From: Adineta vaga
Taxonomy: Eukaryota > Animalia > Rotifera
Direction of reading: 5' to 3'
Length of the DNA stretch: 64,000 nucleotides
Assembly (NCBI GenBank): GCA_021613535.1
Contig: CP075495.1
Coordinates: 15,190,001 to 15,254,000 of the forward strand
Made by a program: the position numbers and the translations under genes. The notes under the pieces were generated by a model, which had not been told where the DNA came from, ran no database searches, and saw only the letters and a program-made list of their open reading frames with translations. How positions within the stretch are numbered: the stretch's first letter is position 1; every line of letters starts with the position of its first letter. Below, one piece after another: positions 16,550-46,032 of the stretch.

Positions 16550-17860
16550 TCGTCACTACGTTAATGTACTTGATGAGAAAAGAGGAGAACGAATTTTCTG
16601 TGTAATTCCTTTCTTTTTTTCCTCTGTATTTATAGATCGATGAAAACTATATACGAAGAAATATTTCTTTTTCTTTTTGGTAGATTCTCAAAATAAGAAA
16701 TCTTCTAACATTTTTTTTATCTATATCAATTGTAAAACTTCGATATTCAATGATTAAAAACGATATTGTTCTATTCGAAATAAATGATCGTTTTCTATTT
16801 GAAACAATGAAATTGTATTTTTACACCGTTGATGAAAAATCTGTTTGTTTGTTCAAATTGTTACAGAGATATTCGTTGTTTTCCTCTGGATAATATTGTT
16901 GTCATAATGAATAAATCTACCATTTTTCTATGATTTCAACTCATGACACATTGCACTTAGATTAATCTTATTCGATGTTTTTGTCTTTTAATACTGAATC
17001 TATAGTATTATGCAATGCTTCATATTATTTGTCCAGGCAATTCTTATTCTAATTAAATAATACCTAACAAAAATGTATTTCATATAAGGATTCGAAACGT
17101 ATTTTACTGTTTTATGATAAAAGTACTTTGTGAGAACAACAGAATCCTTTTATTACTATACTATCAGTTATAAGAGAGTCATCTTGACACTATTTTTTTT
17201 AAATACATTAATGTTACTGATTTTGTATACATCGTGCCTTTGCTATGAAATAACATTATTCTTTTTCTTCAACTCGATGTCAGTATAAACATTTATTGTC
17301 TAAAGATTAAGAAACAATTGATCAAGTTAACCAACGTATGAATGAACAACTGAGTCTGAAAATCATGTAAAAAAATAGTTAAGCATTTATAAATCATTCC
17401 AGTTATTCATTATGTAATCTTATCATAAGTTCAATGATTGACAGAAAAAACGCAATAACATTTGTTGATTGAGTACGTACAGAAGAATAAAAAAAGAAGA
17501 ATCATATAATGTCTCAATAGTATTTTTTTTTCTTCTTCCTTCTTTCTTGTCTTAGTCGTAATGTACTGAATCAACTCAACTCGAAGATATTTGATGTATT
17601 CTATACAATAGACATACATTCTTGCACGATCACATGGTTCTCTTTTTCTTTTTCTTTCTTTTGCACGATATAATACGCATATAACGGGAAGAAAATACTC
17701 ACATCCTATTTACTTTCTATACATTATCATTCTATTTTTTTTTGTACTCTATGAATGCGATACAATAAAAATCGGATTAAGTCGTCTTATGGTTTAATAG
17801 ATCAGTCTCTTTTTAAAGTTCAATGAAAAATTTTACATCATTTTATCCTTTCAAATAGTG

Positions 17861-19432
17861 ATGATATCGAAAAAACGATCAATATTTTCTGCTGAAGAAA
17901 AACGAAATATCATTATTTATATATTCGGAATTGTTCTTTATAAATTTGGATTAGAAGCATTTAATGGTTCAATCATAACTTTGGCAACAAATCGATTTGA
18001 TCGAGATGCATTGAAAAGTCGTGTCACACCACATACATTCGAAAAAGTTGGATTAGTTGCTGGTTTAAATCAAGCATTACAATGTGTTGGTGCGATCTGT
18101 ATTTCACCTCTAATTAAACATTGGCCTACACGAAATGTTCTTTCAATTGCTATTTTTATCTTTGGTTTATGTACAGCTATTTTAATCATTCTTGATTCAG
18201 CGACAGGTGGTTATATAAAACCAAAAAATTTTAATTCAACAAATAAAAATGATTTTAGTTATTATGGTGATTATAAATCGGATTGGATTATATTAATTTT
18301 TGGTTTGACTGGTATTGCTTATGGAACAGTAGAATCCATTAATCGAGTTATTCCAACTGATATTGTAGGAAATCATATTGAAAAATTACAAAGATTTGAT
18401 GCATTAGTTCATATTTTCTATGCTATTTCGGGAGCCATTGGTGCATTTATTACTGGTCTTATTTTAATACCAAAACTTGGTAATAATTATGCATTTATTA
18501 TTACACCTATTCTATTTACTGCATCAGGAATGGTTTGGTCATTGATGAGTTCTTTTAAGAAAAAGAAAACCAAACGAAAAAATCAACTCGTCACAATTGA
18601 AAAGAAATCAAAATCAAATTATTTGAAAATTATTCTGAGAAAAATCATTGCTTTTGGACAATCTATTTATATAGGTGGAAAAATTATTCTTAGCAATCGA
18701 AAATATATTTGGTTGTACAGTTGTTATTCATTAACACTCTATGCTCATCGATATCTTGAAGATGGAATTGCACCACAAGTTGCTCGACGATATTTGGGTA
18801 ATTCTGCTTGGTCAGAAATTATTATTGGTGGCTCAAATTTTGGTGAATTACTTGGTTCTTTTTGTCTCTTATTTTTATCAAATTCAATTCGAACACCAAT
18901 ACCTTGGTTAAGAATAAGTGCATTGATTTTACTTGTTATTTGGTATGTTCCATTTTACTACCCTTCATTTCATAGTATTAAACATGCTTGGTTTGTTGCT
19001 TTAACATTTCTTCCTATTTCATTTGGATGGGCAGCTAGTGATATTGCACTTACTGCTCACATACAATCTGCAATGACACGTCTCGAACCTTTATATGAAG
19101 ATATTTCTGTACTTGGAGCAGTAATGTCATTTCTTTATTCATCTTATATTATTATTTATGCAATTGCAAATCCATTTCTTGGAAAATTTATTGATAAAAC
19201 TTATGAAAAAACTGGAACGATAAGACCAGCACTTATTTATACAGCCGGTGTTCAATTTACAATTATTATGATAATTGTATTAATATCGACTTTTATTCCA
19301 CCTGGTGCATTAGCTTGGAATCCTACAATAACTGATAATAATGAAGATGATGAAGATTCATCAGAGGATACGGATAATTCAAATGAATTACTTGGTACGA
19401 ATCATCCTCATGATGAATTGAACACGAAATGA
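17861..19432 (+). CDS. Multi-pass MFS-type transporter of fungal-like family
   Basis: Uninterrupted 524-aa ORF with ~12 hydrophobic segments, N-terminal EKRNIIIYIFGIVLYKFGLEAFNGSI and an acidic tail. A possible small upstream exon starts at ATG ~17755 (MRYNKNRIKSSY). Confidence 0.75.
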   Translation: MISKKRSIFSAEEKRNIIIYIFGIVLYKFGLEAFNGSIITLATNRFDRDALKSRVTPHTFEKVGLVAGLNQALQCVGAICISPLIKHWPTRNVLSIAIFIFGLCTAILIILDSATGGYIKPKNFNSTNKNDFSYYGDYKSDWIILIFGLTGIAYGTVESINRVIPTDIVGNHIEKLQRFDALVHIFYAISGAIGAFITGLILIPKLGNNYAFIITPILFTASGMVWSLMSSFKKKKTKRKNQLVTIEKKSKSNYLKIILRKIIAFGQSIYIGGKIILSNRKYIWLYSCYSLTLYAHRYLEDGIAPQVARRYLGNSAWSEIIIGGSNFGELLGSFCLLFLSNSIRTPIPWLRISALILLVIWYVPFYYPSFHSIKHAWFVALTFLPISFGWAASDIALTAHIQSAMTRLEPLYEDISVLGAVMSFLYSSYIIIYAIANPFLGKFIDKTYEKTGTIRPALIYTAGVQFTIIMIIVLISTFIPPGALAWNPTITDNNEDDEDSSEDTDNSNELLGTNHPHDELNTK

Positions 19433-21738: not shown

Positions 21739-22253
21739 CTGAAGTTTTTCTCGTCAATAGAACAGTTTCAATGTTTGATCGTTTTCGTATTTTTTTTCTA
21801 TACGAAGAGAATATTAAAAGAAAATTTTCATGTACTTTATGTGAATAACCAGTGAAAATGATTAGGCTAGAATATTTACGCATATAAATATGCAGATCGG
21901 AGATGAAGACTTCCTGTTTCCCTGTCTACCTATTGATGAAGATATGAGAAGTATAGTCTATTATCACTCTCTATACGTGACGAAATAAGCTCATATTTCT
22001 CGTTCGATTTAGTTTTAGATAATCGAAAAAAGTATATCTAACTATAATAGGGTCTGTTCGAACTAAGATCTTCAATAAAGAAAACCTATACTAATGAATG
22101 AATGAATCAATATAATTTATATAAGTTGTCGAACTGAATATCTATTTATAAATCGGAACTACAAGTTTATACTTATCGAATGTATCTGAGACAGTTTTAT
22201 TATCTTAAATACACTTTTCTTTAAAAAAATAAGATTTTAAACTTTTTAGGTGT

Positions 22254-25200
22254 CTAATATTGACAACAATCGATCAATACTAGGTCTTCCATTGTTTCTC
22301 GATCATATGAATATAATGGGTTTAGTTCATAAATGGATAATGCTCGTCGATAATAGTCTAATGCGATTTTAAATTGATTAAAATATTCATAATATGTGCC
22401 CATTTTTGATAAACTTTCGGCAATCCTCGGATCATTTGCTAGTAATGTTCTTTCACATATTGAAAAGATTTTCATCTCATAAAATAAGGACAAATCATAA
22501 TGGTCACAAGATTCATGAATTTTACTGTGATACATCAAATTATACACTATACGTAAATCTTCAGAAGGTAGGTTGGCTTCTCTGATTTCTAAACAACTTT
22601 CAAAATGTTTAATTGCATGAGCATAAAGTTCTTGTTCAAAGAATATAGTTGCCATGGATTCCAAAGCATTTATTATCAAATAATAATTAGTTGGAGCAAA
22701 CTCATTTAGCATCAGTACTGATCGTGAATAATAATCAATAGAATCTTCGAATTTTCTTTCTCTGTTTTTAAGAGCAGCAATATCTTGTAAACTAAAAATA
22801 ATATCTATATAAGATTCTGGATAATGTTTTTCTCGAATCGATAGTAATCGTTCTCGATAGTTTATTTCATTTTCAGAGTCACTACAATTATTCAAACAAC
22901 TAATTATATTTATGACACTTGAAATTATATCTTGAATAGAAGATGAACCGTATTTCTCGTAGATTACCAATGCTTTTTCATAATAATCTTTTGCTTCAAC
23001 GTACTTGTGTTCCTGTTCTCTTGTTATTCCAATATCCTGTAATACATAAGCAATATTTGCATACTCTAAAGGACAATACATTTCTCGCATATTTAATAAT
23101 CTTTGTTGAAACTCAAAAGCTTCCGTATAGTTTCTTTGTCTTCGTAAAACATGAATAATATTTCGAAATATTGTGGCAATATATGTATAATCGAATGAAA
23201 CCAATTTCTCTTTAATTTCTAAAGCTCGTTGATAGAATTCAAAAGCTTCATTGTCTTTTCTTTCATTATATTTTATAGTTCCCATAGCATTATAATTAGA
23301 AGCAATACTTGCATGATTGACAGGACAGTACGTTTCGCGCATGTTCAATGATCTTTGTTGAATGCTCGATGATAGAATTCAAGAGCTTGATCAAACTTGT
23401 TTTGAGCATTTAATATATTACCTATATTAATTAAACCAGAAACAATCTTTGTACTATTTACAGGATATAAATTCTTTCGCATTTCAAATGCCTGTTGATA
23501 ATAACTGAGAGTTTCGTTAGCATTGCGTTGATCCTGATAAATATCACCAATAAGTTCTAAAGTAAAAATGATACTGGAGTGTCCCAATGGATAATATGTC
23601 TTTTGAATTGCAAGTGCTTGTTGTTGGTATTGAATAGCTTCATCAAAGGTTTTTTTCTCTCTTAATAAATTACCAATACTATTGAAACTATAAGAAATAT
23701 AAATATGATCTGGTGGATATAGGTTCTGTTGCATTTTTAACGCTCCTCGGTAGTAACCAAAAGATTGATCATAGTTATTTTGATTCAAAAACGCATGACC
23801 AATACTTATAAGTGCTGAACTCATTTCAATATTGTCAGATGAAAAATACTCTTCATACAATTTCAATGCACGATTATAGAAATCAATTGATTCAGTTATT
23901 TTCTTTTGTCATCGTAAAATATCTCCAGTATGAAGAAGAGAGATGCTAATATGAGCATAATACGATGAATAATATGTTTCTAACATAGTAAGAGCTTCTT
24001 GTTGAACACAGAGAGCTTTTTCATGATTAACGAGTGTTGATTGTACATTACTAATACCTGTTGGTATAACTCTAAAGCTTCTCCGTACCTTCCTTGTTCA
24101 TCTCTAATAGTGCCAATACCGTGCAAAATTTTAGCAATAGTATAATGACCAGATGGATATAGATTTTTGGTCATAACGAATATGCGTAGATAAATATCTA
24201 GTGCTTCTTCGAATTTTTGTTGATGAAAATAATAGAAAGCCATTGTCTGAAGAGTTCGAATAATATTTATATGACTTGATTGGTAATAGTTTTTATAAAT
24301 AGACATCGCTCGATTTAGATAACTAAATGCTTCATTGAACATACCGTTATAAAGTAGTGTTATACCAATATTATTAGAATTTGTTGCAATATCAACATGG
24401 TCATATTTATAATATTCTTCGCGAATGCTTAATGCTTGTTGAAAGTAAACATGTGTTTCATGATATTTCTTTGTTCTACGATGAATTCGACCAAGATTTT
24501 CTAAACTATCGGCAATATATGAATGAGTTGAAGGATAATATTCTTTTCTAATGGCTAAAGCTTTTTGATGGAATTCATTTGCTTCTTCATATTGTCCTTG
24601 TAAATGCAAAATATCACCAATATCAGAAAGTATCAAAGTAGAATCTTTAATACGACTTGGGTTAGCTTTTATTATTCGATCATAAGCACGATCATAAAAT
24701 ATTTGTGCTTCTTTCCATTCACCTTTCCAATAATAAGTTTGACCAATTGAATGTTCAATCCATGCTAAATCTTCGTTGCAGAAATCCTCATATAAATGTT
24801 CAAAATATTTTTGTGCTTGACTCCATCGATTCATATCACACATCAATTTACCAAAAATAATTGGAATACTAAGATTTTCTATTTGACGATGTATATCTTT
24901 AATATATTTTTCTATAATCAATTTTATCAACCATATTTGCCCTTTTTGCTCAATACATTCTAATTTAAATGTTGTATTTTAATCGAAGAGAATTGTATTT
25001 GATCGAGAAAGATTAGCAAAATTAAAATTATTCTGAACGTTCTTTAAATTACATTCAATTCGTAGTGTGATGTCAATTAATTCGTTTTCTTTCAAATTAC
25101 TTAATTGATTCTTTGTTATTTTGATTTGTTGATGAAAACAAAAGTTTTCTAAACCGGATTGAATGACTTTTTGATGTTCACAAGATAAACAATCGATAAG

Positions 25201-25905
25201 ATCAACAAAAAATATCGTAAACTGTACAATTGATCCATATTTTTTGTTTGTGAAGCTTTGTAAATCATTTTTTGTAACGAAGAATCATTTCGATAGCATT
25301 CAAGAACATTATTTGTTTGATAATCATCTTCAAAATTGTCAAATAAATTCAGTTCTTGAGAATTTTCTTCCGAATAAACATGATATGCATCGAACATTTG
25401 TTTCTTGGCTTCTTCATTACGTGGAAAATGAGAAATAACACGATGATATAATTGAATCCAGACAGAAAATCACTGACTTGTTTTGATAAATCGTTTTTGA
25501 AATAATTATCTTCATGAAAAAATGTCCATGGATAAGATTGTTCATTGATTAACGCTATTTGTTCGTTTAGTGATGAAAATAATAAAGGAATCTTATCATA
25601 AATACCAATTATATTTAAATCTGGATGAAAGAAATACTTATATTCATCTTTTGTTGAATGATATAGAAAGATTAAATTAACGCAACGGAAAATATCAAGA
25701 TGAGATAAAATTTCCGCTGTATATGAATTAGAAGTAACGAGAAGAATATTTTCATTTTTAATTAATTCAATTAATGTTATACATGATTGAATACTGGAAT
25801 AGAAAACAAAAGAATGATCAATTTCATATAATTCATCTTTTAAATCTTTGATTTCATCATTTGAACATAAACAAAATATTCAACTAAATGATGTGAATCA
25901 TATCA
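22254..25905 (-). pseudogene. Frameshifted TPR-repeat gene (N-terminal domain + degenerate ART-like region + many TPRs)
   Basis: Kinesin-light-chain/NPHP3-type TPRs (G.Y.EA..F.QKAL.I...Y...H..IA.SL.N.G) are split over three ORFs by frameshifts (~23345, ~23870-23990). There is an in-frame TAA near 24980 and further breaks at 25150-25460. Confidence 0.75.
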
Positions 25906-34876: not shown

Positions 34877-35316
34877 TTTCTTTTTCTTTTTGTTCGATAA
34901 TAAATAATATAAAAGTTTTATTGTGTAAATCATAGTTAGAACAGATCAATCAATGATTTATAATAAAAATAATATTCAGATTCTGAACAAGACTAACAGA
35001 TATAAATGTTTTTTTTTATAGAATAAGAATTTCTGTCAACAATCATAAAATATTTCTTACTAAATTCATGTACAGTAACATTAATGATATTTATCAGTTC
35101 ATTATCTTACCGCGTTTCTATGTAATTCATTTGTTGGTCTACTCGATGTTTATTAATCCTTCTCACCTTTCATCTAACATGCATGAATAATATTTCATGT
35201 CTTTTTTTTATCTTTAATATATTATTATGTAAAGATTTTGTTTCGATACATCAGTATATTCAATAATTTATTTCACGAAATATCTAATCAAATCTATCTG
35301 CATGATTAAGACAATA

Positions 35317-35340
35317 TAATAATAATAATAATAATAATAA
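35317..35340. repeat. (TAA)8 microsatellite
   Basis: Direct reading; lies downstream of the zf-PARP/WGR stop codon. Confidence 0.8.
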
Positions 35341-35418
35341 AACAAATACACACTGTTCTAAAAACATCAAATACATTTTATACATATAAAAAACATCACT
35401 ATATTGCTAAAACAGAGT

Positions 35419-36198
35419 TTATGATAATCTTCTTTTCGAAGCAGTTCGCGTCGGTTGTTTTCGAGTAGCAACAGTTGTTGTCTGTTTCTTTGTTCGTTTT
35501 GCTGGTGTTGCTTTAGCCGGTGTTGATGATTGTTTACGTTTTCGTGTCGTTCCATCGGATGTTTGATTGTCCGTAGTTTCACCTGTTTGTTTTTTTAATG
35601 TATATCCATTTTTAAGTTTTTCTTTAATTTTTGTTTGATAATATTTTTTTGCTTCGGATTGATTTGAAAAATCTTTATATAAAATAATTGCATTAGAATC
35701 AGCTTCATTTAAAAGACCATATTTTGTTTTAGTTGATTTCTTATCCAGAGATATTTGCCAATATTTCTTCTCTTGATCATGTTCAAGGTAAGTTGTACTT
35801 GCTGTTGTTGATGTTTCCGAAAGATTTCCTTGAAGTTTTTCTTCATAATTGAAAAGTTTTTTAAGTTTATCTTGATCTTTCTTTTTCAAATCGATAAAAC
35901 CTTGAAGATCTTTTGTCACATCAGTAATACGTTTTTTCTTTTCATTTCCGGATCGTAGATAACTAATCATACATTGAACATGATAATAAACAGGCATTAA
36001 TTGTTCTTCGCGTGTCGATGATCGAGGAATAAATGGATTAGGAATTAAACGAGATAAACGAAGTGTTTCTTTACTAATTTCATTGTCACAATTTTTACCA
36101 TGACATTTTGCATTACTACTTTTAGCATAATCACAACCGAATGAAATAGTAGTACCATCATCATTATCACCCGCAGCAGCAGTAGTAGTTGAAGCCAT
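35419..36198 (-). CDS. Stand-alone PARP-type zinc finger + WGR-like domain + basic tail, no catalytic domain
   Basis: DYAKSSNAKCHGKNC..LRLSRLIPNPF..YYHVQC..DLQGFIDLKKKDQDKL (zf-PARP, C-x4-C..H-x2-C); KKYWQI..KTKYG..YKDF..EAKKYY..KIKEKLKNGY (WGR-like); Lys/Arg/Thr tail; single-exon CDS. Confidence 0.8.
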   Translation of the reverse strand: MASTTTAAAGDNDDGTTISFGCDYAKSSNAKCHGKNCDNEISKETLRLSRLIPNPFIPRSSTREEQLMPVYYHVQCMISYLRSGNEKKKRITDVTKDLQGFIDLKKKDQDKLKKLFNYEEKLQGNLSETSTTASTTYLEHDQEKKYWQISLDKKSTKTKYGLLNEADSNAIILYKDFSNQSEAKKYYQTKIKEKLKNGYTLKKQTGETTDNQTSDGTTRKRKQSSTPAKATPAKRTKKQTTTVATRKQPTRTASKRRLS

Positions 36199-36844
36199 TG
36201 TTTTCTTTGTTCAACAAATAAGAATATCTGAAAAAGAAAAGACTCTAATTCAAAGAATTTCAATTGAATATTAGGCCAAATATTTGTCATTTTGGCCTTC
36301 ACTCCCGCTCAAGCTCAATCGTCCGTCCGTCTATCTGTCAAGATAATGTTTTTGACAACCAATACGAAATTCGATTGACGATCATCGATGGATTGAATAG
36401 ATTTAGGGCTGAAGAAAAATTTTACTAAAATAAATCGTGTATTTTAAAGATAATCAAATAAGTTTTTCTATCAATCTGATTTTTTTATACTGTAGATGCC
36501 TCTAGTTGCACGATTTAACATACATTCATGGCAACTATTTTAATTTAAATCACTTCATACTTCTATGTCAAAGCTTCACAAAATAGATCTTTCCACCATC
36601 TCGAAAATCTTTGTTCAATGTGTGAATATGAGTAAAAGTGGAAACAAACACTGTACATGTACTGGTATTTTCAACCATACAATTAATTGGTTACACCCAA
36701 AAAGTATGTAATCGTACACTATCGAAGAATGGTTATATACCTTATTCACTATTTTAACTTTCAGCAGGTATCTTTAATGGCAAATAGATTTTATCTGATA
36801 ATCTGTAAGAAATTTTCATATATTAGATATAACTTAAATTTCAA

Positions 36845-38029
36845 CTAAGCTGCATATACAAAAAAATTCGATTGCTCCTCTTGTGCAGCAATTTCCAAAG
36901 GAATAGCAGTCGCAATCAATGGAGTCGTTGGTATTTGAACTTCGAAACTGTTTTCTAATATAATTTCATCATCATCATCATCATCACCACTTAATGATGA
37001 TTGTTTATCTGATATAATGCTAGCGAGTTTTTCAATATTATCGGGCACGACAATAGATAATCTGGTTGAACCATAGATTTCTTCATTCTTCTTCTGTATT
37101 TTTTCAATATCGAAATTAAGAATAGTTCGGCAGTAGGTAATATGTGCAAGACCTAAACAACCAACAATTGCACATGGTATTAGAATTGCTTTGTCATGAA
37201 GTATTTCATGAGCAAACCAACCAATGATAGCACCAGAAAAGAAAGATAAATATAATGGGATTAAAATTTTTAATTTCCATAAATGTTTACGAGTTCGTTG
37301 ATGAAAAACTGCTTGACCAAGAATAAGTCCTATATCTGTTAATGTTCCTGTCACATGTGTTGTACGAATAACAGCACCTGAATACGTAGTACACATACCA
37401 TTCTGTAATCCAAATCCAAGACATACTAAATATGCACTTGGAGACAATGCTTCCCAATGATTATGCAATGTAATATGAACATTCTAAAAGAAAAAGTGAA
37501 GATCAAAAATCGGAGAGTCATGACGTCGTTTCTTTCTTACTTCGAATAGACTACCAATACCAAGAGCGATTGATTCGAGAAAAAGTACTAAACCATAATG
37601 TCGTTGAATTCGAAAAGAAGAACCACCAATAATAGCTGCTGAGATAAAACTTCCCAAAGCAAATGAGATAATCAATAAGAAGAAATGAAAAGCTATATCA
37701 AAACGACCTTGTGCTAAGACAATAGCCATTTTTGATGTACTGCCTGTAAGAGCAGTGAGTGGAAGACGAAAAGTATTAACAATACAAATTGTATTGACAT
37801 ATCCTGCAACGAAACCAAGAAGACATGCAATCGTAACTAGAACAGACAATGCATGCCAATGCCAATCATGAATATATCGAGTTGGAGAAATAATTGTTGA
37901 ACGACGAGGTCGTTGAAAAGGATTTAATTTCTAAAAATTATCAATTAAAATTTTACTAAAATACTCTTCTTTTTTCTCATCGAATCAATGTATACATACT
38001 ATGATAGATTGTTTTCGATGTGGAGTCAT
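36845..38029 (-). CDS. DUF1275 / YoaK-family membrane protein, 3 exons
   Basis: LLGFVAGYVN, LTALTGSTSKM, FALGSFISA and GLQNG..YSGAVIRTTHVTGTLTDIG motifs. ATG at 38027-38029 (MTPHRKQSII|). Confidence 0.88.
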
Positions 38030-38559
38030 TTGTAACAGCTGTAAGTCTATGGTTACAGTCAATCAAATATTAAAATTTACCACAAATGATTTCTTTTTAT
38101 TTATCGAATGCATTTCATGTAACAATCTTTATTTTGTACACTGACAAAAAATATTATTTAACGCTTCATCAATATAACAAGTACAAGTACAGTGCGTGAT
38201 GTTTGAATGATCAAATAATTAACTACCGATATGTTTTATTCAAATAGCAATATTTCATTTTTTAAGTAAAAGAAAAAGAAAAGGAAGATGTTTTTTTCTC
38301 TCGCCATAGGTGAGTTACATGATCAGATCTTTATCAGATTTTAATAAACTTTCAATGAATATATATAGATCATTCATATGAACTGAAAGATTAAAATCTT
38401 ACGTATTTATTATTCATAAAAGAGTAGTTATGTATATACCTATAAGAGAATTCTATGATGAAATAATAAATCAAACCATTAAACTGTATATGGTTCTTTC
38501 TTTCACATCACTCTCAATGTGTTAACTATGGATAGAAATTTTTCATAATTTTATTTTAT

Positions 38560-39714
38560 TTATGTTAATACATCTTCTTCTAAATGTGAATTTTGTTCAG
38601 CTATTTGTTTCATATTTGAACAAATTGAACAATATTGAAGATTCTGTTCATTTGGAAAACCTGCAGTGTAATATCCACCATCGAACATTGATAAATTTAA
38701 TTGATTCCAATTATGAAAAGATGATGTATTTGTATTTGAAGTCGAATTTTTCATTTTCATTATAAATTGAATCCATGTATTTACAATTAAACATGCTCCC
38801 GAAACACAAACACCAATCCAACTTCCAACTGTTCGTGTTGGAAATGATCTATCCTTTGGTATGAATTCTATCGATTGATGTCTCTGTATGAATTCTGGAA
38901 GTAATAATTCGAGTACTTTTTTCTGATAGAGAGGCATAAATAATGTGACTAATTCAGATGGTGAAGGTTGATTTAAATTTAATTCATTGAGACAATTATT
39001 TATAATTAATTGTGATTGTTCACCGGAGATTGAAGTCATCTCTTTTAGAAATAATTGAATATTATTTATATTTTCTAGTTCTTTCATAGAAAATTTAAAT
39101 GAATCATTTGTAGAATTATTACATGCCCAACATGAATCATTCAATAAACCAGAGAACAAATTTATTTCAATATTATTCGCATATGTTGAACCAGCTAGAT
39201 AGATAATACCTAATGATTTACATAAAGAATTGACTGCATAATCAAATACTGCTACATAATCAATATTATTAAATATTACTGTACATTTCTTTGCTATATC
39301 GACTACTGTAAACCAATTGGTTACTGCATCCAAATGATAATGATAAATATTCGTTCTTAAATTATGTTGTTCTTTTAAATGTTGTGCAGCTATTTCTACT
39401 TTTGATTTACCAACATCTAATAAACTAAATAAAATTTGTCGATTTAAATTTGATGCATCGATTAAATCCCGATCAAGTAGATGTATAGTATCTACACCTA
39501 ATCTTACAAGAGACATTGCAATACTACTACCAATACCACCAACACCCAAAACAAAGACATGCTGTTGTTCAATTAAAGATTGATTAAAATTTTTCATCAC
39601 ACGTTGCCGATCAAAAACATCTCCATGTATTTCAGTTGGTGGTTGTTCATCTTCTGATACGACGTAATTCAAATTCGATTTACTTGTTGCATTTACTTCG
39701 ACTATGTTGGACAT
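38560..39714 (-). CDS. ThiF/MoeB/E1-like adenylating enzyme, intronless
   Basis: FDRQ, VFVLGVGGIGS, LLDRDLIDASNLNRQILF, DVGKSKV, and Zn pairs CWAC and CSIC; likely ATG at 39712-39714. Confidence 0.88.
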   Translation of the reverse strand: MSNIVEVNATSKSNLNYVVSEDEQPPTEIHGDVFDRQRVMKNFNQSLIEQQHVFVLGVGGIGSSIAMSLVRLGVDTIHLLDRDLIDASNLNRQILFSLLDVGKSKVEIAAQHLKEQHNLRTNIYHYHLDAVTNWFTVVDIAKKCTVIFNNIDYVAVFDYAVNSLCKSLGIIYLAGSTYANNIEINLFSGLLNDSCWACNNSTNDSFKFSMKELENINNIQLFLKEMTSISGEQSQLIINNCLNELNLNQPSPSELVTLFMPLYQKKVLELLLPEFIQRHQSIEFIPKDRSFPTRTVGSWIGVCVSGACLIVNTWIQFIMKMKNSTSNTNTSSFHNWNQLNLSMFDGGYYTAGFPNEQNLQYCSICSNMKQIAEQNSHLEEDVLT

Positions 39715-39976
39715 TATTTTTCGATTTCTATACGTCAAATTAAAAGGTGTAGAAGCGAAAGGCACGTGTTTGTTCTATGACATACAAAACCGTAACACAA
39801 TTTTGATTACCATTGAAAAAAAAATATGTGGTAGAGAAATGCGTAAGTTACAGATGAAATGTAGAAGCGTTTTCCTAGTGTTATAATTAAACTTGCTTTA
39901 TTCAATACCACTACATAAGATATATATTTTTCAAAAGACAAAAAAAAATTATCCTATAAAAAATAAAGTAAACGCA

Positions 39977-42677: not shown

Positions 42678-44467
42678 TTATGGTTCATCATCCAAGAGCA
42701 TATACTCGACCGTTTCATTGCTAGATGCTGAGATTGTTTCACCGTTTAGTTTTCCTAGAAATAAAAGAAATATAAAATTTTTTATGAAAAATCAATGAAT
42801 AGAATCATTTACTATTTCCTTCAATCTGTTGATTGAAACAAACAATGGAATTTTGTATTTCACATTTTGTTCCAATTGTTGAACGAGAACACAAGATTGA
42901 ATTTTGCAAAGTAACTCTACAAAAATCGAAATTAAAATCACGAAATGTAATTCTACTTTTCAATTTACCCTTCTTTAACATTAACATTATCTAAAAGTAC
43001 ACAATTAGTGATTTTACATTTATCTTCAATTCGACAATTTTTTCCAATCATTGTTCGTCTTATTGTTGTTTTCTTTCCTATGTCATATCCATCACCAACA
43101 ACACAATCTGTACCGATCTATAAACAAAAAAGAATCAATTTTTTTTCGATGTGAAATTAGTAATATTTTACTTGAATCTGTTCAAGTCGATCTTTAAATG
43201 TAATATCCTCATTTGTGTATGATGAAATTAATAATGAAGCCTTTCAAAGAAAAGAATTAGAATAGATTGAAATATTTTGTCAATAAAATTACTTGTCGAT
43301 TAGCTTCAAGATATGCCAAAACATGTTTAACACGAAATAATTGTGTATCATTAGTATGATAATAACAACCACCTCGAATTTGTTTATCATCGCAATCATA
43401 TTGTTCCAATATTCTTGTTAAATCTCCATGATCATCCATATCCATTGCTATACGATATCAAGTAATTTATATATCGAGGTGAAAAAAGAAAAGAAATCAA
43501 CGTACTTTTCTGTCGCATCATCATTAGTTTGCTATTATTTCCCTGTGCAATCAGATCTTCAAGTGGTTTATCAGTTGCAATTTGTTGAATTAATTTTGGA
43601 AGAAATTCTTTTCGAAATGATGAAAATGAAGAACGATTAGCAATATCTAAACATGATTTTTTGATTAAATAAAAATGAGCATCAACTAAATCTGTTCGAA
43701 TAGTCGTTCGCGGATATCTAAAGAGCATATAGAAAATATATCCAAGAGTTTTAACGGATGATTTTCTTACTTGACAAGAATGGCTTGTCTTAATGAGAAA
43801 GATTCATCTAAATCAGCTTTTAATCGAATAGATGTAATGCTATTCGTTGATTGATCGACTGTATAATATTCTGGTTCTAAAAATAGAACATCAAGAATAT
43901 CATTATGTTAAAATAGAACGAAATTATCATACCTGGTGTAAATTTTGTTTTTTGTCCAGGTTGAGCAACTGCTTCTTTTCCAGTTGCTGATGTTGTTGTT
44001 TTAAGTAACAGCATACATAGTGATGCATCTCTTACTCGAAACATATTAATCAATGGTGTTAAATTCACTTTACCAAAAAGATCACATGTTAATAAACAAA
44101 TTGACTCGGTTCGTATACGAGAATAACATGAACGAAGAACATCTAGTGTTCCCAATTCATCTTGTACTTGTTGTTGATCATCACCACCACCACCACCAGT
44201 ACTTGTTGATTCATGATGTTGACGATAAATAACTATTTCATAAGTTATATTTAATGTTGAAAGATAATCATCAAAAGCTTGTCGATATTGTCCAGATGTT
44301 AAAACTAATAATGGTGACGAAGCAAGTGATGGATGTGATTGAATAATTTGAAGTGTATACCAAATTAATGGACGATTAGCAACAGGTAATAGAGCTTTTG
44401 GAAGAGATGAATCTGTGATGACACGATTATGTCCACCAGCATATAATACTATTGTAAATTCTTTCAT
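42678..44467 (-). CDS. EIF2B3: Translation initiation factor eIF2B subunit gamma
   Basis: VLYAGG..LPKALLPVANRPLIWY nucleotidyltransferase-like domain, LLTCDL, TDLVDAHFYLIKK, and a C-terminal left-handed beta-helix (IGKNCRIEDKCKITNCVLLDNVNV). Confidence 0.88.
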
Positions 44468-46032
44468 TGTTTTTTTTTCTATTAAAATAATCTTTAAGAG
44501 ATAATATAACTAATTTATTTTATGAAGAAATCCTTAGAGAAATGATGAAAACTGTTTATAAAATGATTTTGATTTTATTTATATGATTATAACATTTTTA
44601 CATGTAATAAATGATGCAATATTACATCAGATATTGATTTGATATGTCAGAGAAACATCCATACAACAATTGTTATTGTTCTGTAGTATTCATGTACAAA
44701 AAAAGGTACTATTGGAATAATCATCTGAAAGCAAAATCAATATATTGTTTTTTAATATTTCTGAACTGGATGAACAAATAAAAACTTCTATTTGAAAGCT
44801 AAAATGTTGTTTTTATATGGTTTTAACCTTTTCTAAAAATGCATTTGTTGAACAATTCAACAGTAATTGTATATGAGAATGTCTGGCGAAGAGAATTCAA
44901 TGAATATTTCTTAAAAATAAAGAAAAATCGTGATTCCAGTAGTCAATGAATGGATTAATAAAACTCTGAACATGACTCACTGTTATATTAATTGGATGAA
45001 TATATATTATCCATGTAATAAATTTTTCTTCGATTTTCTCAATATTATTTATCATTTTCACCATAATTGTTTTGCCTTTTGTTTTGAAGAATCATAAAGA
45101 TGTCGCTATTAGATAGTTCACACAAAACTCGTATCATCGTTTAAATTCCGAGTTTGTTGTGATTTTAAAGTGACTACACTAGTATTTCAACATGAAAACG
45201 TATTCAATATAATCTAAGAATACTATTCATTCGTTTATTTCGCTGTGTTTCGATTTACATTCGAATATAAATAAGTTAGTTATTCTATTCCGACAGTAAT
45301 TGGTCAGAAAAATTCTATTTAAATGATTTTAAATTAATTATTTAAAAATATTGTTCTTATATCTATTCGATCAATTTTCATGTTTTCTAGTATGAATTTA
45401 TCGTACAATTCTTTCTAATAGAATGAGTTTATGACAAGATCCAGCTCATTAATGAGAACTCAAGTAGAAATATAGATCAAAATATATTTAATTGAAGAGT
45501 ATGTTAGAACTGTTATGGCCTATAATATTCATTGAACTATCTGTTTTTCGTACTGAACGAAAAGCGACCATTCATAATATAGAAAGGCTTTTCAATCGAA
45601 TTTTCGACAATGTAAAGATATAGATAAACATATAACTATAACGAAGAAAGAAATTCAATTAACACTAAAAATAAAGCTAACGATTTGATTTTTCTTTTTG
45701 TCTTATCTAGATATATTCATGCCTTCTCGTTTAGTCAATGTTTCAGTTGGAAAAGCATCAATTAATTGATACTGCTTTAACAGCATACATACATGCTTCA
45801 TATAGATCCATATATATTTGATTTAGAACATAAGAAAATGGAACATGAAGTTCAAACTACTATTAAAAAATCGATTTTTATATGTTTAATCAATCCAGAT
45901 CGACCAATCCGATCGGATTCGTCGATCTGAGAATATTACTGATGGTCTCTGAATTGGTTGAATATTTATTAATGGGTCTATGGTTTTTGTCATTTTAATT
46001 ATTTGTTTTCTGAAAATTTCAAAAAACAAACA

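Follow-up and report, generated by a model that had tools for sequence, protein, structure and literature searches.

The window, by which we mean the whole stretch of 64,000 nucleotides analyzed here, is AT-rich (26 to 32% GC) and carries on its minus strand a gene for a 259-amino-acid protein in which Pfam recognized a PARP-type zinc finger (zf-PARP) and a WGR domain, with no catalytic domain. An earlier note, made from the DNA letters, had described a single-exon open reading frame (ORF) of this length, and it is indeed found there, with a coding part free of introns; the motifs quoted for it (YAK..AKC-x4-C, PNPF, YH..CM, KYWQI, KYGL, and I.EK...GY) are likewise all present in the sequence. 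Table 1 collects the features of the gene and its flanks.

Table 1. Features of the finger-WGR gene and its flanks (window positions; residues are those of the encoded protein)
Feature	Position	Strand	Remarks
Coding sequence (P0001, 259 aa)	35419..36198	minus	Coding part intron-free; covered unspliced by RNA-type contigs
PARP-type zinc finger, residues 19-118	35845..36144	minus	Ligands C32, C37, H73, C76; Pfam and fold match
Long helix, residues 106-125	35824..35883	minus	Predicted; helix H95-114 of the model, pLDDT 91-98
Compact WGR domain, residues 134-201	35596..35799	minus	Y-G-L replaces W-G-R
Basic Ser/Thr-rich tail, residues 203-259	35422..35592	minus	Predicted disordered; net charge +13
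3' untranslated region	35245..35418	minus	AATAAA at 35267-35272; longest contig end at 35245
Conserved upstream element	36277..36300	minus	Pattern built from the window, L001, and L010

RNA and DNA contigs from 8 of 23 runs were aligned to the window, the RNA-type status of the runs being a prediction. The whole ORF was covered by contigs of X1, X2, X3, X5, and X17, and part of it by contigs of X6 and X7. No splice joint inside the finger-WGR gene or leading out of it appeared in any of the eight runs aligned; a contig of X5 did contain a spliced 48-base GT..AG intron in a neighboring gene. Contigs covering the whole ORF ended at 35386, 35354, or 35245, past the stop codon, and none ran into a catalytic domain. 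Contigs of X17 and X7, which come from two studies, both stopped at 35245, 27 bases past the AATAAA, and the DNA-like X15 crossed both flanks; this is a weak hint that the 3' untranslated region (UTR) ends there. Along the same strand, the 16 ORFs of at least 60 amino acids between window positions 22000 and 35400 held no PARP or ligase domain, and a TAA stop followed the basic tail in all seven examined loci that reach the 3' end. By Pfam, transcript ends, loci, and downstream ORFs, then, no PARP or ligase catalytic domain belongs to the same polypeptide, and the contig ends, stops, and downstream ORFs bear out the proposal of a stand-alone protein. Eight of the 11 allele differences within the ORF were silent and none introduced a stop, and dN/dS values against eight loci ranged from 0.16 to 0.36 for the finger and from 0.14 to 0.37 for the WGR domain. 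The gene is under purifying selection; it is an intact, transcribed, and complete gene for an enzyme-less protein made of a zinc finger and a WGR domain.

By Pfam, the neighbors are 7TM receptor, DUF1275, ThiF, and Frag1 genes. Among 11 metagenome loci compared with the window, the order ThiF, Frag1, DUF1275, finger-WGR gene was kept in L004 to L007, which are near-identical to one another, and L010 kept the DUF1275 neighbor. The available part of Table S2 of PMC12220480 gives for Adineta vaga the order eIF2B-gamma, Frag1, ThiF/DUF1275, FUN_005240, which is that of the window, and lists for the syntenic gene FUN_005240 only PF00645 and PF05406, with no BLAST match and no flag for horizontal gene transfer (HGT). 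In the same source, ThiF and DUF1275 form one merged model (they are separate ORFs in the window), the best matches of the ThiF gene are to Acanthamoeba, Symbiodinium, and Thecamonas, and an MFS gene close by carries an HGT flag together with fungal matches. Within the window, neighbors of non-animal appearance lie at 36845-39765 (minus strand) and 17801-19432 (plus strand), and a long TPR-repeat gene in several ORFs, without a Pfam catalytic domain, occupies 22254-25879 (minus strand). At L002 (1-1335), a 62%-identical copy lies directly 3' of the gene that stands at ca. 42800-44500 in the window, which is eIF2B-gamma by the A. vaga order; ThiF, Frag1, and DUF1275 are absent between the gene at the eIF2B-gamma position and the finger-WGR copy. 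L002 may represent another lineage or an ohnologous second region.

Upstream of the gene, an element of ca. 25 bases with a near-palindromic core has counterparts at 436-460 of L001 and 2495-2519 of L010, and the window and these two loci share it despite a synonymous-site difference of ca. 0.6 to 0.75. Its pattern occurred in 2 of the 11 loci; upstream DNA is present in five of the nine loci without a match, and the element was not found in L002 or in L004 to L007. Two further matches within the window, each with two mismatches, are near chance level. The element is a possible promoter site. Closer to the gene, ca. 30 bases before the ATG, there is a pyrimidine-rich run ending in CAG (36228-36235, minus strand), with like runs in L001, L002, and L010, and the longest RNA-type contig begins at 36229, at this run. 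It could be an acceptor for splicing in the 5' UTR or for a spliced leader, and trans-splicing occurs in bdelloids; no splice joint was seen at the run in the runs aligned. As for expression, the accessible data of PMC12220480 give FUN_005240 a mean of 28 to 38 in unirradiated animals (values taken as TPM), compared with 7 to 8 for the A. vaga LIG3 gene FUN_007371, which retains its own finger, and 3 to 5 for a PARP1-like gene. Spaceflight left FUN_005240 unchanged (FDR, 0.65) in the same data.

A search of 879 candidates of 142 to 454 amino acids returned 28 homologues with 57 to 80% identity and lengths of 184 to 270 amino acids. Six of them are named, and all six are bdelloids (Adineta steineri, A. 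ricciae, three Rotaria, and Didymodactylos carnosus), which agrees with the bdelloid host suspected at the outset. No longer fused form turned up among 7991 candidates of 474 to 2000 amino acids, a search that also missed the tandem relatives of ca. 500 amino acids described below.

The zf-PARP match (PF00645) extended over residues 23 to 115 with 59 bits, against a cutoff of 39.3. The predicted structure of the finger superposed on PARP1 Zn1 with a Z score of 13.1 (rmsd, 2.5; 87 aligned) and on the LIG3 finger with a Z score of 11.2 (rmsd, 3.3; 100 aligned), and all 28 full-length family rows have the four ligands of the C-C-H-C type (P0029, whose N terminus differs, was excluded from these counts). 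On these three grounds, the finger assignment holds. Alignment to PARP1 places the base-stacking loop at N54-P55-F56-I57 and R47 opposite PARP1 R34; R47, N54-P55-F56, and M68 were invariant in the 28 bdelloid rows, and residue 57 was always Ile or Leu. The position of PARP1 R18 is taken by N29, with Arg in none of the 28 bdelloid rows versus 52 of 56 compact protist-type modules (see below), and two residues further on, at 31, all 28 rows have Lys or Arg. A Pro stands at the position aligned to PARP1 D45.

The finger had also been placed close to that of DNA ligase III. Such a resemblance exists, the best single-domain match among PDB sequences being the LIG3 finger with 38.6 bits (ca. 19 for each PARP1 finger); descent from LIG3 does not follow, as a grouping of the bdelloid finger with LIG3-like fingers was rejected (AU test, P = 0.001; 95 columns, with four LIG3 rows, none of them bdelloid, and seven LIG3-like rows picked after the first tree). 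The R-A-R nucleosome anchor of LIG3 was found in 0 of 28 bdelloid rows and in 2 of 4 LIG3 rows. The picture suggested by these residues is of a finger still built for stacking on an exposed base pair, with an altered backbone grip.

The second domain passed the Pfam WGR cutoff (PF05406, residues 142 to 203, 24.1 bits against 22), as did seven of eight homologues scanned. Among eight PDB profile matches up to an E value of 10, the only WGR was Bacteroides 2ra8 (E value, 3e-4), and the predicted model of this part of the protein does fold as a WGR, closest to 2ra8 (Z, 10.4; rmsd, 1.5; 68 aligned) and further from the PARP1 WGR (Z, 7.7; rmsd, 3.3; 78 aligned). Pfam, profile, and fold thus confirm the bacterial-style compact WGR, with YGL for WGR, that had been read from the letters. 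The W-G-R triplet was Y-G-L or Y-G-I in all 28 bdelloid rows; its third position, Leu or Ile here, is Lys or Arg in 116 of 132 other WGRs, of the stand-alone or multi-WGR type.

Finger and WGR are separated by a spacer of 14 to 16 residues in all bdelloid rows. A model of residues 12 to 206, based on a 71-row alignment, reached a mean pLDDT of 93 and a pTM of 0.85, with one helix spanning the end of the finger and the spacer region (Table 1). Because the pTM is high, the two domains are predicted to be held in a fixed arrangement by this long helix. The model superseded one from a bdelloid-only alignment, which had resolved the WGR alone (mean pLDDT of the finger, 58.8); a homodimer prediction computed without an alignment scored 0.00 and is evidence neither way. 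The tail is the least conserved part after the N terminus, and its basic nature, as claimed earlier, is plain from its charge. It carries basic clusters, which we take to be NLS-like, and T-P-x-K motifs (20 of 28 rows), putative kinase sites; in our reading, such a tail resembles those of histone H1.

Searching 1.84 billion representatives with a profile yielded 433 matches at E values up to 0.001, of which the best 150 were listed, and a second search gave 104, with named animal entries that were PARP1-type or finger-only. Among 110 proteins scanned with Pfam, 29 had both domains without a catalytic domain and 2 were PARP1-type enzymes, and our own profiles found both domains in 122 of 300 proteins. 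These 122 were of two types: in the compact one, spacers measured 14 to 16 residues in bdelloids and 10 to 16 in most other members, and in the long-linker one, they measured 40 to 204. Two finger-WGR units were present in a Didymoeca costata protein marked as complete (P0033) and in Vermistella antarctica (P0035, P0182); we take the former species to be a choanoflagellate and the latter an amoebozoan. A search by architecture, as the earlier note had proposed, therefore does find the enzyme-less unit, frequently as a tandem, in a choanoflagellate, an amoebozoan, and many other sequences. Origins were looked up for 30 proteins, and most were metagenome or run-assembly records, which we infer to be from microbial eukaryotes. 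Many of the protist-type matches lie on contigs of ca. 1 kb and may be fragments. All four zinc ligands were kept in 9 of 58 compact non-bdelloid (protist-type) fingers.

Several relatives have partners of the DNA or repair type: SAP domains in P0032 and P0034 and BRCT plus SAM in P0056. In P0240, a WGR of the same clade is joined to a DNA 3'-phosphatase, and in P0052 and P0080, other compact WGRs are linked to DNA ligase domains. Compact WGRs were also paired with LRR, SMI1/KNR4, TPR, and DUF4132 domains, and P0063 had a weak CCCH-finger match (E value, 0.005, below the cutoff). The ESM Atlas gave no usable match for the window protein or the choanoflagellate module, peptide-pattern scans of prokaryote genomes and viral contigs, which detect close relatives only, gave none either, and a viral fold library returned single-domain matches only, as judged by aligned length.

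Three further groups were observed in these searches. The long-linker proteins (P0051, P0059, P0068, P0070, P0087, P0118, and P0124) are a second enzyme-less family with a clade of its own, in which a LIG3-like finger is joined to one or two WGRs via long charged linkers and an R-A-R or R-G-R motif occurs in 8 of 15. A large compact branch (P0033, P0040, P0044, and P0189 to P0192) is left with one of the four zinc ligands and retains the grip arginine, a pattern that suggests a zinc-free version of the PARP finger. Finally, P0248, P0257, and P0268 combine an enzyme-less PARP finger with PBZ, HMG box, or SAP domains.

A tree was built from 41 modules, 8 of the 28 bdelloid rows among them, over 173 columns and with eight long-linker rows as the root. 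In it, the bdelloids were nested within the compact type, their sister group being the C-terminal units of P0031, P0032, and P0034 (99/91), and a simpler model without the outgroup gave the same sister group (97/94). An arrangement with the compact type apart from the bdelloids was rejected (AU P = 0.02). So was a grouping of bdelloids with the D. costata sequence (AU P = 0.002), a result that paralogy could also produce. The origin was not settled by the larger of the finger-only trees (125 rows, 95 columns), which put the bdelloids near PARP1 Zn1 and compact modules (unstarred), a grouping that a smaller finger tree repeated (99/95); in the finger-only trees, the bdelloids sit with the C-terminal units of the same three proteins and PARP1 Zn1. 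Judged from the finger alone, there may be a link to PARP1 Zn1. The bdelloid finger profile scored highest against compact modules (76 bits), followed by LIG3 (52) and PARP (36), and the bdelloid WGR grouped with protist-type modules, not with stand-alone or multi-WGR proteins (86/80, unstarred). No named non-bdelloid animal had the unit in the homologue search, in the second profile search, or among the 30 proteins with origins looked up, the sisters being nameless and monogononts lying outside the direct search.

On these comparisons, the finger-WGR pairing is not a bdelloid invention; the unit is also present in protists. Bdelloids are nested among protist-type modules, and therefore, a horizontal gain is likely. 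We consider it fairly probable that the source was a microbial eukaryote with a tandem finger-WGR gene, that the C-terminal module of this tandem gave rise to the bdelloid gene, and that the gain predates the divergence of the sampled bdelloid genera. The less likely alternative is that the gene is ancient and was lost from other animals.

How such a protein might act can be discussed from its better-known counterparts. According to the available text of PMC8150716, PARP1 fingers meet single- and double-strand breaks with a backbone grip (R18/R122, called key to DNA binding) and a stacking loop (F44 or L161/I164), D45 is the activation contact, and the WGR of PARP2 bridges ends, with the WGR arginine as the main contact to the second DNA end. 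The LIG3 finger, in the accessible part of PMC4538836, senses breaks and promotes intermolecular joining. The reading that we prefer, tentatively and at somewhat less than an even chance, is that the bdelloid protein is a candidate constitutive nuclear binder of DNA ends and nicks that works with separate enzymes. The hydrophobic loop F56/I57 would stack on the exposed base pair at a break, like F44 of PARP1, and R47 together with the invariant lysines of the family would touch the DNA backbone; the WGR sheet would provide a second DNA contact at a fixed distance, and the basic tail would serve nuclear entry and lend extra nonspecific affinity. Nicks and ends would be held in this manner for separate repair enzymes, with catalysis in trans, for example, by ligase E, DNA 3'-phosphatase, or PARP2, which, like polymerase beta, are irradiation induced in the accessible data of PMC10665377.

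Support for this end-binding role comes from the folds, which match break-binding domains of PARP1, LIG3, and PARP3; from the invariance of the ligands, R47, N54-P55-F56, M68, and I/L57; from the SAP and BRCT partners of relatives and the WGR fusions to 3'-phosphatase and ligase; and from an expression of FUN_005240 above that of the LIG3 and PARP1-like genes in unirradiated animals, as far as the available data of PMC12220480 go. It is weakened by the loss of both the R18 equivalent and the WGR arginine in all 28 rows. The former loss is softened by the LIG3 finger, which has Thr at that position, and by the invariant Lys or Arg at 31; nick binding is compatible with it because of the same Thr. 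Nonetheless, the two missing arginines make break sensing less certain than first assumed. The role is also weakened by the small fraction of protist-type modules with all ligands, which indicates that the family can drift from the canonical finger, and by irradiation data: the accessible Table S1 of PMC10665377 contains no protein described as zf-PARP or WGR among those induced, two of its entries being nameless and unmapped. Since the LIG3 of A. vaga keeps its own finger, there is no finger-less LIG3 there that would need complementation.

The loss of the two arginines is also what lends some weight to the chief competing reading, in which the protein would be a general chromatin or architectural DNA binder with a preference for bent or nucleosomal DNA and none for breaks, and may shield DNA passively. 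The basic tail with its T-P-x-K motifs and the steady expression of FUN_005240, undisturbed by spaceflight in the data of PMC12220480 that are available, fit such a protein, and the LIG3 finger itself binds undamaged nucleosomes in the accessible part of PMC12748704. However, the R-A-R motif that the same source identifies as the nucleosome anchor of LIG3 is missing from the bdelloid rows, and the base-stacking loop, which requires an exposed base pair, is invariant; we regard this reading as somewhat unlikely.

As a break-binding decoy, the protein would occupy ends silently and limit PARP overactivation and NAD+ loss after massive breakage. It has only the DNA-reading domain types of PARP1, and the activating residues are absent (Pro at D45, WGR arginine lost). 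Isolated PARP1 finger fragments inhibit PARP. In the available data of PMC12220480, expression of the A. vaga counterpart exceeds that of one PARP1-like gene several-fold, and irradiation induces 17 PARP genes according to the accessible text of PMC10809525, which does not mention the finger-WGR gene. Against this stands the occurrence of the family in protists not known for mass DNA breakage, and a decoy seems improbable to us. We give as little weight to a role, defensive for instance, in which the target would be RNA, foreign DNA, or a partner protein: the LRR, SMI1/KNR4, TPR, and DUF4132 partners of compact WGRs and the subthreshold CCCH match of P0063 would suit it, but the zinc ligands and stacking loop are intact in bdelloids, the tail is NLS-like, and the nearest relatives have SAP partners. 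It is scarcely credible that the gene is a contaminant, or that it is a fragment or mispredicted first exon belonging to a larger PARP or ligase, for although many protist-type matches lie on short contigs, here there is no splice joint in the eight runs, contigs continue past the stop into the 3' UTR and terminate there, TAA follows the tail at seven of seven loci, the 16 downstream ORFs lack a catalytic domain, and L004 to L007 and L010 have syntenic neighbors.

Returning to the binding of ends and nicks, a bolder version of it, which we hold to be unlikely, is that bdelloids use a rigid finger-WGR clamp of microbial-eukaryote origin that is in place before damage, caps or tethers ends, hands them to ligase E, and restrains PARP overfiring. 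If true, such a clamp, acting during drying or irradiation and feeding a ligase E pathway that was itself acquired horizontally, would add a new component to bdelloid break tolerance and be the first characterized member of a widespread, unstudied eukaryotic family. More generally, as to how bdelloids maintain a shattered genome and piece it together again, the known players are enzymes; the finger-WGR gene, small, conserved, and steadily expressed, is a candidate nonenzymatic end binder missing from the inventories examined. WGR is not mentioned in the available main text of PMC10809525 or in the readable supplements of PMC10809525, PMC10665377, and PMC6264785. Databases already label the bdelloid proteins automatically as PARP-type domain or WGR domain proteins, and we could find no description of the enzyme-less zf-PARP plus WGR architecture, bdelloid or protist, in the literature outside subscription journals. 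It is thus a conserved bdelloid gene in an unstudied enzyme-less family held in common with protists, with an architecture that is apparently undescribed. The wider family, in which the two DNA-reading domains of PARP form a fixed unit free of catalysis, bears on the evolution of PARP-type break sensing.

Compared with PARP1, the rotifer protein shares two domain types, the equivalents of R34 and the stacking loop, and the fold of the finger, whereas it has no Zn3, BRCT, helical, or catalytic domains, consists of one finger joined by a fixed spacer to a shorter WGR, and lacks R18, D45, and the W and R of W-G-R. With the LIG3 finger it has in common the P-N-P-F loop, the K-K-(R)-I.D segment, and the absence of Arg at the R18 position; it differs in having neither the ligase nor the R-A-R anchor, and the two do not group in the tree test. 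The closest solved WGR, Bacteroides fragilis Q64V53 (PDB 2ra8, PF05406), also has Y-G for W-G but no finger, and the basic residue that follows Gly in most WGRs of stand-alone or multi-WGR proteins is absent from bdelloids. Members in microbial eukaryotes differ in that the complete-looking ones consist of two units in tandem, in some cases with SAP, and retain the equivalent of R18, and many have lost zinc ligands. Even so, the nearest relatives by score and tree are found there: like the bdelloid protein, D. costata P0033, V. antarctica P0182, P0031, P0032, and P0034 are enzyme-less by Pfam and have basic tails, and P0031 to P0034 and P0182 have, for the most part, the same short spacer of 10 to 16 residues.
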